Shown: positions 3,911 to 52,754 of the stretch, piece after piece
Layout: every line of letters begins with the position of its first letter
Numbering within the stretch: position 1 is the stretch's first letter
Source: a virus
Lineage: Duplodnaviria; Caudoviricetes
Direction: 5' to 3' (one strand)
IMG/VR virus record: IMGVR_UViG_3300021408_000001
Span: 68,905-132,904 of that record
DNA length: 64,000 nt
Notes under the pieces: model-generated
The model's input: the letters and a program-made list of their open reading frames with translations, nothing else
Databases searched by the model: none
Told to the model about the DNA's origin: nothing
Made by a program: the position numbers and the translations under genes

Positions 3911-4270
3911 TCCCTAAAGGTGAGAATAACGGGGGATGGCATCGCCTAGGGGGTCACTTAGAAACCCGAACGGTGCCATCCCCTGCTCACTAACGATTTG
4001 AATACGCACAAGGGGTAGCTAGTTGTACTCATTGAAACCGCTTATGCCTAATCGTGCATAGGTATGGAACGTGGGCACTAGCTACCCCCTGTGTTTATTC
4101 AAGTCTAAGAGGCGGGTAGCACGTGAACGGTCACCTTAATAAGTGAAAGCTTGTGACCGAACACCTTAAAGTGCACAAACCCACTCTTGCTAGGCGTTAG
4201 CACTTACCGGTGAATAACAACCTGGTGGGTAGCTAGCGCCTAGCGGCTATCGCAAAGCACAGGGGGAGAC

Positions 4271-4423
4271 ATGAATACACCAAACGAAAGCGCTTATGAC
4301 TTCTACTACGCACAAGCGATGATGGAAGGCGTGAATGCCAAAGAGGCAAGCGAGTACGCAATTCAGCGCGCCAGCAACCCAGGGCGTGACTTCTACAGCC
4401 ATATGTTGGCGCAGGCTCGTTAG
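4271..4423 (+). CDS. hypothetical protein (50 aa), first cassette gene
   Basis: AGGGGGAG RBS; TAG stop is the first base triplet of element 1. Confidence 0.65.
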   Translation: MNTPNESAYDFYYAQAMMEGVNAKEASEYAIQRASNPGRDFYSHMLAQAR

Positions 4424-30267: not shown

Positions 30268-30522
30268 GTGGCTGCTGCATCACTAAAGAATATTGAAGGA
30301 TGGTACCAGAGTGGTATTGTCCGAGGTGCTACCCATATGTTGGTAGTTACTGATACTTGGACAATGGTAGACACTCCGATATTTGTTCTTCGATGGGATG
30401 ATGTCAACGAAGTCATTGCTAAGTATCTCAAGATGGAACATACCAAGATCCAAGAGGTTTATAATCTAAGCATGTTGTGGGCAGAGCAGAATACACCGCG
30501 TGAGAAGGTGTGGAATATTTAG
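30268..30522 (+). CDS. hypothetical protein
   Basis: GATHMLVVTD..EVYNL; TAG in next element. Confidence 0.7.
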   Translation: MAAASLKNIEGWYQSGIVRGATHMLVVTDTWTMVDTPIFVLRWDDVNEVIAKYLKMEHTKIQEVYNLSMLWAEQNTPREKVWNI

Positions 30523-30548
30523 TACTAGCTGAGGGTAGTGGGTAGCTC

Positions 30549-30677
30549 AGTCCTCTAGGACGTAAGGGCCTAGACGATGTGAGCATTGATAGTGGAGCTG
30601 CGTAGGACGGGAAACCTTGACGCAGAGTAAGACGGACGGCCTATAATGGAGCGAGTCTTACGGTCTATCGATGTTCG
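30549..30677 (+). ncRNA. candidate structured small RNA nested in the loop of a repeat element
   Basis: 129 nt enclosed by GGGTAGTGGGTAGCTC/GGGCTACCCACTGCTC; four internal helices. Confidence 0.55.
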
Positions 30678-30727
30678 GGGCTACCCACTGCTCAATTGTT
30701 AGTATTAACCAAGGGAAAGGGAAGTAA

Positions 30728-30949
30728 ATGGCAAGACTAGTCATCATGATTGATGTTAAGGGCATTGACCCTACGATCATGGATCCACAGGTGCTAGCGG
30801 AAGATATCGTTATGGATGGTCCAGAGTATTCTGACGGTGTTAGATTCACCATTGCTGATAATGCTGAATGGATCGCAGAAAACGATGATCCTCTAGCGTG
30901 GCGTAGATCAATGCGGAAGCTGAGTGATAAACTGTTTCCGGACGACTAG
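30728..30949 (+). CDS. hypothetical protein
   Basis: Element plus RBS; TAG in next element. Confidence 0.75.
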   Translation: MARLVIMIDVKGIDPTIMDPQVLAEDIVMDGPEYSDGVRFTIADNAEWIAENDDPLAWRRSMRKLSDKLFPDD

Positions 30950-32424: not shown

Positions 32425-33483
32425 AGTGTGGTTACTAGCTATATTAATTGGCGGTGTAGCAATGGCCGTAATGGTTTTTATGGTGGTACACTCCATTGTA
32501 AAAAGGTAATGATTGAGGGTGCACAGGGGAACTTGTGCATCCAATTGTCATTATCAATAGGGAAAGGGAAAGTATGGAGGAATTTAAGATAGGGGACATC
32601 GTTGAGGTAGATGGTGAAACTGTCTATCATATGCACGAAGATACACTCCGAGGAACTATCGAAAAGATTTCCCCGGGGCTATTTGATATTCCTCTTTACC
32701 TAGTTCAATTTAGGGATTTCACTTTTTGGCTCTATGCTCATCATTTGACTGAGGTTAATTAGCATGAGTGATCTTGACGTACAAGTTGAGGGTCTAGCTA
32801 GACTCAATTCTAATTGGGATAGTCATGGTGGCACACCACCTACCCATGAAGCTATTAAAACTCTATGTAATATAGTCTTTGTGCCACTGCCCAATGGTGG
32901 TATTCAGGTTGAGATAGATGATGGTGATGTCTACGTGGAGACTGAGATTGCCCCGGATGGGAATATAGTCTACACCATGAAGTTTAGCAAACACAAAGGA
33001 AAGTGAGGTGATAACAAAATGAAGTTAAAGAAAGGTGATCGTGTCGAGCTTCTAGACAAGTTCAGGAACGCCCCATTCCAGGGACATACTGGAACCGTGC
33101 TAAGGCGCGGCAAAATTGGTCGAATGTGGCATGTCAAGTTAGATATGCCTGGCTTAATGGGGCAGACAATGGCTAGGGTTCCAACTAGTGGCCTACAGAA
33201 GATCCAGCAGGCCTAGCGAATTCAGGTGCCCCGGAGCGACGCATGGCACCCCCTACGTTGCCTCCTAAGGCTCTCCCAGAGGTCGGAAGGTCCGAGAGTG
33301 CCGGGAACCCTGATTCGGCCGCATTGGCCCCTAGAATGCCCCAGAATCGATTTGGTGGACGGAGCGTGAGATCGAACTACGGAACGTGTGATTCTAGTGC
33401 TAGCTAAGAGCTAACAAGTTCAAAACAAAAGGACAACCTTGTTGGCTCGATTGTTACTACTAGATATAAGGAAAGGGGTAGCG

Positions 33484-33885: not shown

Positions 33886-34032
33886 TCATCTTGTAGAGCA
33901 CGCCTTGATCGTCTTTCAAGGGCAAGCATTTGAAGGTGGCGACGCAAGAGATAATGCTAGAGAAGCAATGAGGATGGCACTAGAAGCAGTAATTAAAGAT
34001 CTTGCTGCGTTACTCGGGTACGACGAAGAGTC

Positions 34033-34087
34033 TTAGCCGTACAAAAGCACCCTGTGAAATATTCACAGGGTGCTTTTGTACGGCTAA
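34033..34087. terminator. bidirectional terminator-like perfect inverted repeat (26-bp arms)
   Basis: TTAGCCGTACAAAAGCACCCTGTGAA-ATA-TTCACAGGGTGCTTTTGTACGGCTAA between convergent ORFs. Confidence 0.75.
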
Positions 34088-34099
34088 AACTAAAAAAGC

Positions 34100-41500: not shown

Positions 41501-42706
41501 ATGCCTACTGTAGAAACAGGAAACCCCAAGCTGCTATCTTGGGCATCAGACCAGGACGGGGCCGTGCTAGCACAGGCCTCTCGTAGCGCGAGCTTGCCTA
41601 TTGTCCATGGACATGTGGCACTTATGCCGGATGCACATATCGGCTTTGGTGCAACGGTAGGTTCTGTTATACCTACAGAGGGTGCGATTATTCCCTCTGC
41701 TGTTGGAGTTGACATTGGTTGCGGAATAATTGCAGCTAAGCTACCACTAACGTCTGCTGCGCTTGGAGACAACCTAGAGCGCCTACACACAGTGGGATTG
41801 CTCGCGCTGTACCGGCTGGTGTTGGCCAGGGTCATAACAAGATAGTACATACCACAGATCACGAGCATTTCCCAAGGGCTATTTCGCACACGCTTCATGA
41901 CCACAAGACTCATGGTCCTCTTAAGTCTTTGTGGGCTAGAGCTGAGCACCAATTTGGTACGTTAGGTTCAGGCAATCATTTCATTGAGATCAGTCTTGAT
42001 GAAGCTGATGGTGTTTGGGTTGTACTGCACAGTGGGAGCCGTAACGTAGGCAAGGAGCTTGCTGAGCTACACATTGATGTAGCTAAGGGTGTCATGAAGG
42101 AATTGCACGTTAAGATCCCTGACACTGACCTTGCGTACCTTATTCAGGGTACAGATGAATTTGATCATTACATTGCTGATATGCTATGGGCACAGGAGTA
42201 CGCTCTAGGCAACCGCCGAGGTGATGATGGATGCCGTACTAGATGAGGTTATGCACCATTTGGGGGTTAGATTCAATCCTCATTCTCGTAGTACACCTCG
42301 TATCAATTGCCATCACAACTATTCTGCTTTGGAGTACCATGATGGTAAGGAGTTGTGGATCACCCGCAAGGGTGCAATCAAGGCGAGCATAGGAGATCCA
42401 GGAATCATCCCTGGTTCGATGGGAACCAATACCTATATCGTTGAGGGTCTAGGTAACTCGCTGAGCTATGAATCGTGTAGTCATGGCGCTGGTCGTCGGA
42501 TGAGCCGTGGTCAGGCTAGGCGCTCGCTAGACGTTGAAACCGACCTTATGGGTGCAATGGCTGGTAAGGTCTGGAACAACAGTAAAAAGCTAATTGATGA
42601 GGCGCCAGGCGCTTATAAGGATATTGACCAGGTCATGAAAGATCAAAGCGACTTGTGTGTCATCAAGCATACGCTGAGTGCAGTACTTAATTACAAGGGA
42701 CACTAA
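41501..42706 (+). pseudogene. rtcB: RtcB RNA ligase, split by two frameshifts (real or assembly error)
   Basis: MPDAH.G.G..VG, AVGVDIGCG, GTLGSGNHF, LHSGSR, HHNY, RKGA, PGSMG, SHGAGR, DEAP.AYK; extra AC near 41789 and extra C near 42217. Confidence 0.88.
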
Positions 42707-52661: not shown

Positions 52662-52754
52662 GGTCGGGCTGGACGGCAGAGCCTGCAACACAGGGCCTCG
52701 GCAACCGCTCACTGGGCGCTCTGGCAGGTGAGGGTTCAAATCCCTCCCCGACCA
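52662..52754 (+). ncRNA. tRNA-like RNA with non-canonical core
   Basis: Acceptor GGTCGGG/CCCGACC-A and T-arm GAGGG-TTCAAAT-CCCTC, but no normal D or anticodon arm. Confidence 0.6.

Follow-up and report, generated by a model that had tools for sequence, protein, structure and literature searches.

A structured 129-nt insert in the tip of one member of a covarying intergenic hairpin family in a soil phage

One copy of an intergenic hairpin that recurs between the early genes of an uncultured soil phage carries 129 nt of structured RNA in its apical loop. We consider the best explanation, to which we assign a probability of roughly 45%, to be that this insert is a structured expansion specific to the phage lineage and accommodated by a permissive hairpin tip; it would be transcribed together with early genes and, if the hairpins are cut, either kept as a 3′ domain of the upstream mRNA or released. 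Should that explanation hold, we think it somewhat less probable that the insert is selected as a functional RNA than that it is a tolerated passenger. The element (30520–30707) lies in a 64,000-nt stretch of DNA, the window, comprising bases 68905–132904 of an IMG/VR virus record that is 132.9 kb long and derives from a soil metagenome; the same sequence occurs in an ENA assembly as part of a 155.7-kb contig (100% identity over 6.3 kb). It is a complete copy of the phage's intergenic hairpin, consisting of a TAG stop codon, a 10-bp lower stem, a UGA/AAUU internal loop and an upper stem, followed by the motif GGGAAAGGGA and an ATG. In window coordinates, the features are as follows.

30268–30522, + strand: upstream gene of 84 aa, assigned to no family in Pfam or PHROG; the first three bases of the element are its TAG stop (30520–30522)
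30520–30529, + strand: 5′ strand of the lower stem, TAGTACTAGC, pairing with 30698–30707 (10 bp including 2 G-U)
30530–30532, + strand: 5′ side of the internal loop, TGA, conserved by family comparison
30533–30548, + strand: 5′ strand of the upper stem (P1), pairing with 30678–30693 (16 bp including 3 G-U)
30549–30677, + strand: the 129-nt insert (apical loop), made up of P2 and of P3 enclosing P3a and P3b
30554–30559 and 30569–30574, + strand: P2, TCTAGG with CCTAGA, from the fold
30581–30592 and 30665–30676, + strand: P3, 12 bp including 2 G-U
30598–30603 and 30620–30625, + strand: P3a, CTGCGT with ACGCAG, with GGGAAACC in its loop
30617–30647, + strand: sigma-70-like TTGACG-N19-TATAAT within the insert, at chance level genome-wide
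30627–30633 and 30655–30661, + strand: P3b, GTAAGAC with GTCTTAC, from the fold
30678–30693, + strand: 3′ strand of the upper stem (P1), from the fold
30694–30697, + strand: 3′ side of the internal loop, AATT (RATT in the family), conserved, by motif match
30698–30707, + strand: 3′ strand of the lower stem, GTTAGTATTA, by motif match, fold and covariation
30713–30722, + strand: family-typical ribosome-binding motif GGGAAAGGGA, followed by the ATG at 30728–30730
30728–30949, + strand: downstream gene of 73 aa, starting with the ATG at 30728–30730

The original prediction had described normal flanks, a 16-bp inner stem and a multi-helix loop free of open reading frames, and this description holds in full. 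The flanks (TAGTACTAGC-TGA at 30520–30532 and AATT-GTTAGTATTA at 30694–30707) have no mismatches to the family motifs, the pairing of 30533–30548 with 30678–30693 is confirmed in both the sequence and the fold, and every helix proposed within 30549–30677 is recovered in the minimum-free-energy fold of the + strand. The stop codon, GGGAAAGGGA and ATG stand at family-typical positions, and P1 is 16 bp long in the insert-bearing copy versus 11 bp in the canonical copies. A small-ORF reading of the insert was rejected, as its longest + strand ORF has at most 18 codons and the family ribosome-binding motif is absent.

The structure of the insert exceeds chance. The + strand of 30515–30712 folds at −86.5 kcal/mol (z = −6.39), a value that none of 200 shuffles reaches; for the 129-nt loop by itself the figures are −46.5 kcal/mol and z = −3.09, reached by a single shuffle of 200. 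The − strand of the element folds at −60.3 kcal/mol, 26 kcal/mol worse than the + strand. The insert is predicted to form two nested three-way junctions closed by the 16-bp stem, and its P2 and P3a loops may touch one another (UAAGG with CCUUG). Five G-U pairs occur in the element stems (three in the inner stem, two in the lower) with no A-C or other mismatch, and P3, the only helix of the insert with non-Watson–Crick pairs, contains two G-U and no A-C; the presence of G-U without A-C in the element stems and P3 fits pairing kept in + strand RNA. The remaining helices, P2, P3a and P3b, are perfect Watson–Crick palindromes and could equally stem from events at the DNA level. By these folding calculations the predicted fold is real; any function of the insert itself is hypothetical.

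The element belongs to a large family. Besides the insert-bearing copy, the window contains 49 that are detected by a covariance model (R1) built from 14 family copies; every one of them lies on the + strand, and the rest of the genome has none. The copy at 30520–30707 has both stems and the YUGA/RAUUG internal loop that define the family, but R1 misses it because of its 129-nt insertion. Among the 49 copies, 94.7% of the cells are paired and 293 cells carry double changes, which affect 20 of the 21 pairs, and many pairs are G-U; both stems covary strongly, none of 500 shuffles scores as high and slid controls collapse. We read the family as acting through + strand RNA, with the frequent G-U pairs pointing to pairing in such RNA and not to a recombination substrate. 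Each unit follows the same order, namely a TAG stop, the 10-bp lower stem, UGA, the 11-bp upper stem with a loop of 2–6 nt, RAUU and the returning lower stem, after which come 3–8 nt, GGGAAAGGGA, a few nucleotides and a start codon. Apical loops measure 2–6 nt in 48 of the 49 canonical copies and 19 nt in one (33395–33462), and against these the 129-nt loop is a clear outlier. A scan for intrinsic terminators flagged the family elements only because RATTGTTAGT is T-rich; a terminator has no need of a covarying lower stem, and this candidate was rejected. Nearly all start codons downstream of a family element (window 4421–36325) are preceded by GGGAAAGGGA; the motif recurs in the two related contigs described below, is more uniform than an ordinary Shine–Dalgarno sequence and may be a specific recognition site.

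Positions 4.4–36.3 kb of the window are occupied by a series of small genes, all on the + strand. No close cultured phage was found (there were no DNA matches, and protein identities are <40%); weak matches of the primase, along with several domains of unknown function, suggest an affinity with actinobacterial phages. The 84-aa protein encoded upstream of the element has no word-sharing homolog in a set of 5.8 billion proteins and has 220 distant homologs by full HMMER, the best of them 47% identical. The IMG/VR record is incomplete (132.9 kb vs 155.7 kb in ENA), and genes for RNase III, Ro60 or a tyrosine recombinase could sit in the missing ~23 kb. An RtcB homolog is split across three + strand ORFs (41501–41845, 41929–42246 and 42221–42706), which match profile positions 1–72, 133–249 and 249–426, with positions 73–132 unmatched and the middle piece in a different frame; frameshifts, an intervening element or assembly errors could account for the split. 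Directly upstream of tRNA-Glu, window 52662–52754 is tRNA-like: its acceptor stem has 7 bp (GGTCGGG/CCCGACC) and its T arm is canonical (GAGGG-TTCAAAT-CCCTC), but its core is odd, and it is called by neither ARAGORN nor Rfam. Two inverted repeats are possible regulatory or origin-type sites: a hairpin with 30-nt arms, 97% complementary, ~370 nt upstream of the primase gene (34029–34091), and a repeat with 29-nt arms and a 53-nt spacer (3995–4105) just before the first copy of the hairpin family at 4421.

Related phages bear on whether the tip can carry additional RNA, as the original prediction had proposed for one element. Primase homologs with 54–59% identity occur in metagenomic contigs, and the hairpin family is present in two of these, L108 (Logan SRR31245171; primase 54%) and L109 (JGI 3300062131; about 57–58%). 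A 59% identical primase, protein P0003 of JGI sample 3300041967, is encoded on a contig whose small genes are separated by gaps of 205–440 nt, wide enough to accommodate possible large-loop elements. Three copies in L108 (3537–3609, 6374–6444 and 7077–7165) have apical loops of ~31–45 nt, and together with the 19-nt loop of 33395–33462 in the window they bear out the proposal that the apical loop is a site for extra RNA. These recurrent expansions indicate that the hairpin tip tolerates insertions and is a reused insertion point, of which 129 nt is the extreme. The L108 loops resemble each other, share the motif ACGATRTCC ... ACG, which is possibly a conserved loop module, and are unrelated to the 129-nt insert; a profile of this module did not match the insert. 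L108 also encodes a homolog of the 84-aa protein, and no hairpin element follows that gene. No element was found in the contigs with further primase matches (L110–L112 and L116–L118, the model search covering L110, L111 and L116–L118), nor in three contigs found via a PNKP-type phosphatase that is 74% identical (L113–L115).

The phosphatase-bearing contigs hold structured RNAs of their own. A pistol ribozyme lies at L113:15262–15320 (56 bits, above the gathering score) and a tmRNA gene at L115:19347–19789 (68 bits). The L114 phage encodes Ro60 together with YrlA-like RNAs 1.5 kb downstream of the phosphatase: the region L114:11457–13765 comprises the Ro60 gene (TROVE + vWA domains) and, upstream of it, an 856-nt gap with two YrlA-like matches that score 44 and 25 bits, neither reaching the gathering score, as well as two further hairpin-type matches.

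The insert itself is an orphan. A search of Rfam 15, which took in hammerhead, twister, pistol, hatchet and HDV-like ribozymes, riboswitches, 6S and tmRNA, gave no match at the gathering score and nothing better than E = 9 (E ≤ 10). The insert is single-copy, with no second copy in the genome, and a covariance model built from its sequence alone (R2), run on the window, on the entire genome and on every related locus, recovers nothing but the insert. Neither the 2.2-kb region nor the insert alone has a DNA match, close or distant, among 50,697 phage records; scans of IMG/VR that used the primase, the proteins encoded on either side of the element and two patterns each for element and insert gave chance matches only, none of which was confirmed by R1 or extension, and a scan of JGI metagenomes with an element-plus-ribosome-binding-site pattern gave 59 matches, none recognized by R1. 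A 21-mer of the insert has 0 matches in 185,579 prokaryote genomes. The insert sequence is present only in the source soil sample (two runs), where contigs cover it without differences, and an insert-less form was not found in the contigs of the two runs. No homolog of the insert was found in these searches, so that its inner helices draw no support from covariation.

This singularity lends itself to a reading in which the insert is a functionless passenger that arose at the DNA level, whether by nested palindromic insertion, by template switching or as what remains of a small mobile element, and is tolerated because the tip is of no consequence. Perfect palindromes make up three of the four inner helices, the loop demonstrably accepts insertions, the insert occurs in this phage genome alone and in neither of the family-bearing relatives found, and P3 with its 5′ flank loosely resembles the family upper stem (TGAGCAT... 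vs TGAGAGCAT...). Mobility, however, finds no backing, the insert being single-copy, lacking a target-site duplication and ending in no more than a weak inverted repeat of 5 nt, and a mobile element was rejected on these grounds; so was a nested family copy, the likeness being confined to the 5′ side of P3, with no RATTG and no lower stem. The insert fold moreover beats 199 of 200 shuffles, and the presence of G-U without A-C mismatches in P3 argues weakly in the same direction. We regard the passenger reading as doubtful, if still deserving serious weight.

The favored explanation, a structured expansion carried by a permissive tip, draws on the anatomy of the family, which suggests an intercistronic site of RNase III-type processing or insulation like those of T7. 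The lower stem starts at the upstream stop codon and ends 3–8 nt before the next ribosome-binding site, and the near-invariant UGA/RAUU loop between it and the 11-bp upper stem would complete a hairpin of about two helical turns in total. The architecture of a T7-type RNase III site is present, with 10 + 11 bp (10 + 16 bp in the insert-bearing copy) around a 3 × 4 nt loop between cistrons. Substrates of RNase III are about two helical turns long, and internal loops can restrict the enzyme to one strand, leaving a protective 3′ hairpin (PMC1540722). We hypothesize that the tip alone is free to vary, so that extra RNA can be carried without disturbing the element, and that the insert would be transcribed within an early polycistronic RNA and fold into a stem-closed domain. 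Host RNase III would then be the probable enzyme, cutting at or near the internal loop: a T7-like cut in one strand would leave the insert as a nuclease-resistant domain at the 3′ end of the mRNA that encodes the 84-aa protein, and a cut in both strands would release a stem-closed RNA of ~165–190 nt. No phage RNase III gene was found in the incomplete record. RNase III has little sequence preference, and the near-invariant sequence of the internal loop suggests a sequence-specific factor rather than this enzyme. Alternatively, the hairpins might serve translational (termination–reinitiation) coupling or insulation without being cut, in which case no discrete RNA would be expected.

A cut in both strands would also be the starting point for an RNA acting in trans, either as a small RNA or as a protein sponge, with the hairpin serving as its excision frame, possible circularization by RtcB or Rnl2, and titration of a protein that binds GGA or GGACG, or mimicry of GGGAAAGGGA, as the mode of action. 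Such a role is compatible with the stable 16-bp stem that closes the fold and with the RNA-repair genes of the phage, which are the RtcB homolog and a PNKP-type phosphatase gene two genes upstream of the element. GGACG occurs three times, once at the 5′ side of each hairpin loop, and the loop of P3a displays GGGAAAC, but 31.5% of shuffles contain some 5-mer at least three times. The original prediction had pointed to GGA motifs as fitting a CsrA/RsmA sponge; all six are indeed present, but they are not enriched, as at least six occur in 12.6% of dinucleotide shuffles (p = 0.13), and only some of them lie in loops, the pattern of CsrB/RsmZ-type RNAs being many motifs in hairpin loops above background. 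The absence of conservation, paralogs and homologs in the searches above, together with the RtcB frame broken into three ORFs, further counts against this reading, in which circularization is pure conjecture; overall, we hold it to be unlikely. A bolder version, which we rate as quite improbable, would make the whole family a general RNA-excision frame and the insert a new trans-acting small RNA, cut on both strands at UGA/RAUU, perhaps with its ends healed and sealed by PNKP together with RtcB or Rnl2, and serving, e.g., as a GGACG/GGGAAAC decoy for an RNA-binding protein of host or phage, with the 31–45 nt loops of the relatives as smaller cargos. The analogy originally drawn with bulge-helix-bulge processing does not survive inspection: that motif comprises two 3-nt bulges on opposite strands with a 4-bp helix between them, and here UGA and AAUU face each other in one 3 × 4 nt internal loop.

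Several tRNA-like traits raise the question of a tRNA-derived or tRNA-mimicking RNA (a pseudo-tRNA, an anticodon-nuclease decoy or an RNase P/RNase Z signal) or of a YrlA-like partner of Ro60. The 12-mer GGGTAGCTCAGT in the 5′ strand of P1 (30540–30551) equals positions 5–16 of four phage tRNAs, but with a BLAST E of ~1, and a T-loop-like motif, G-UUCGGGG-C, adjoins the 3′ strand of the stem. ARAGORN in its relaxed mode (introns allowed, threshold of 80%) places at 30535–30693 a tRNA-Ala interrupted by a 78-nt intron; its D and T stems, however, have 2 pairs each, default ARAGORN calls none and the Rfam tRNA model is silent at E ≤ 10, and the tRNA candidate was rejected. The Ro60 gene and YrlA-like RNAs of the phage that shares the PNKP phosphatase (L114) would speak for the Y-RNA variant, which was nevertheless rejected as well: the YrlA model (RF02553), which scores 44 bits in L114, has no match in the insert at E ≤ 10, and no TROVE/Ro60 gene was found in the incomplete phage record. 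Taken together, a tRNA or Y-RNA mimic appears very improbable.

Still harder to credit is an internal sigma-70-type promoter within the insert (30617–30647) that would restart transcription of the downstream genes. Its −10 hexamer is perfect and its −35 hexamer matches at 5 of 6 positions, but the 19-nt spacer falls outside the usual 16–18 nt, and a scan allowing 16–18 nt does not report this match. Matches at 11 of the 12 hexamer positions number 4 in 133 kb on both strands vs ~3.5 expected by calculation, no part of the region is enriched in promoter-like sites, and a promoter would leave the nested helices unexplained; this candidate was likewise rejected.

Should the insert accumulate as a discrete RNA, a repeated hairpin that punctuates mRNA would also serve as a vehicle for small RNAs, offering a simple, evolvable path to new phage non-coding RNAs and a scaffold for structured RNAs in polycistronic transcripts. 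If it does not, the tip of the family is still seen to tolerate insertions from 3 to 129 nt, a tolerance that assigns the function of the family to its lower stem, its internal loop and the basal part of its upper stem. In either case the hairpin family, with ~50 covarying copies and representatives in two related contigs, outweighs the insert in importance, the latter being one unusual member.

Among known systems, the early RNase III signals of T7 (R0.3–R1.3, e.g., R1.1) are similarly hairpins of about two turns with a conserved internal loop that lie between early cistrons. They differ from the soil-phage elements in number (~10 in T7 vs ~50 copies here) and in that the soil-phage element contains the stop codon within its 5′ end; the internal loop of the soil phage has a different sequence, UGA/RAUU, and its cleavage is something that we infer. 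We know of no T7 site with a structured 129-nt domain in its tip. YrlA (RF02553) combines a long closing stem with tRNA-like motifs and occurs in phages with RNA-repair genes, features that the insert-bearing element shares; unlike YrlA, the insert is without an Rfam match at E ≤ 10, has the reverse motif order and comes from a phage record without a Ro60 gene. Integron attC sites resemble the family in being structure-conserved, sequence-variable hairpins in a single orientation between small promoterless genes, and the tip of the attC hairpin varies from 3 nt to >100 nt. An attC identity was nonetheless rejected, as no tyrosine recombinase (PF00589, E ≤ 0.1) was found in the incomplete phage record, the flanks are unlike GTTRRRY and the elements have no RYYYAAC/GTTRRRY core sites, and G-U pairs are frequent. 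The pre-rRNA stems processed by RNase III (16S and 23S) share the arrangement in which a long stem formed by flanking sequences encloses a structured RNA, and there the cutting of both stem strands frees the enclosed RNA; the phage stem, by contrast, encloses a 129-nt orphan RNA and belongs to a repeated family of mRNA-punctuation hairpins, not to an rRNA operon.
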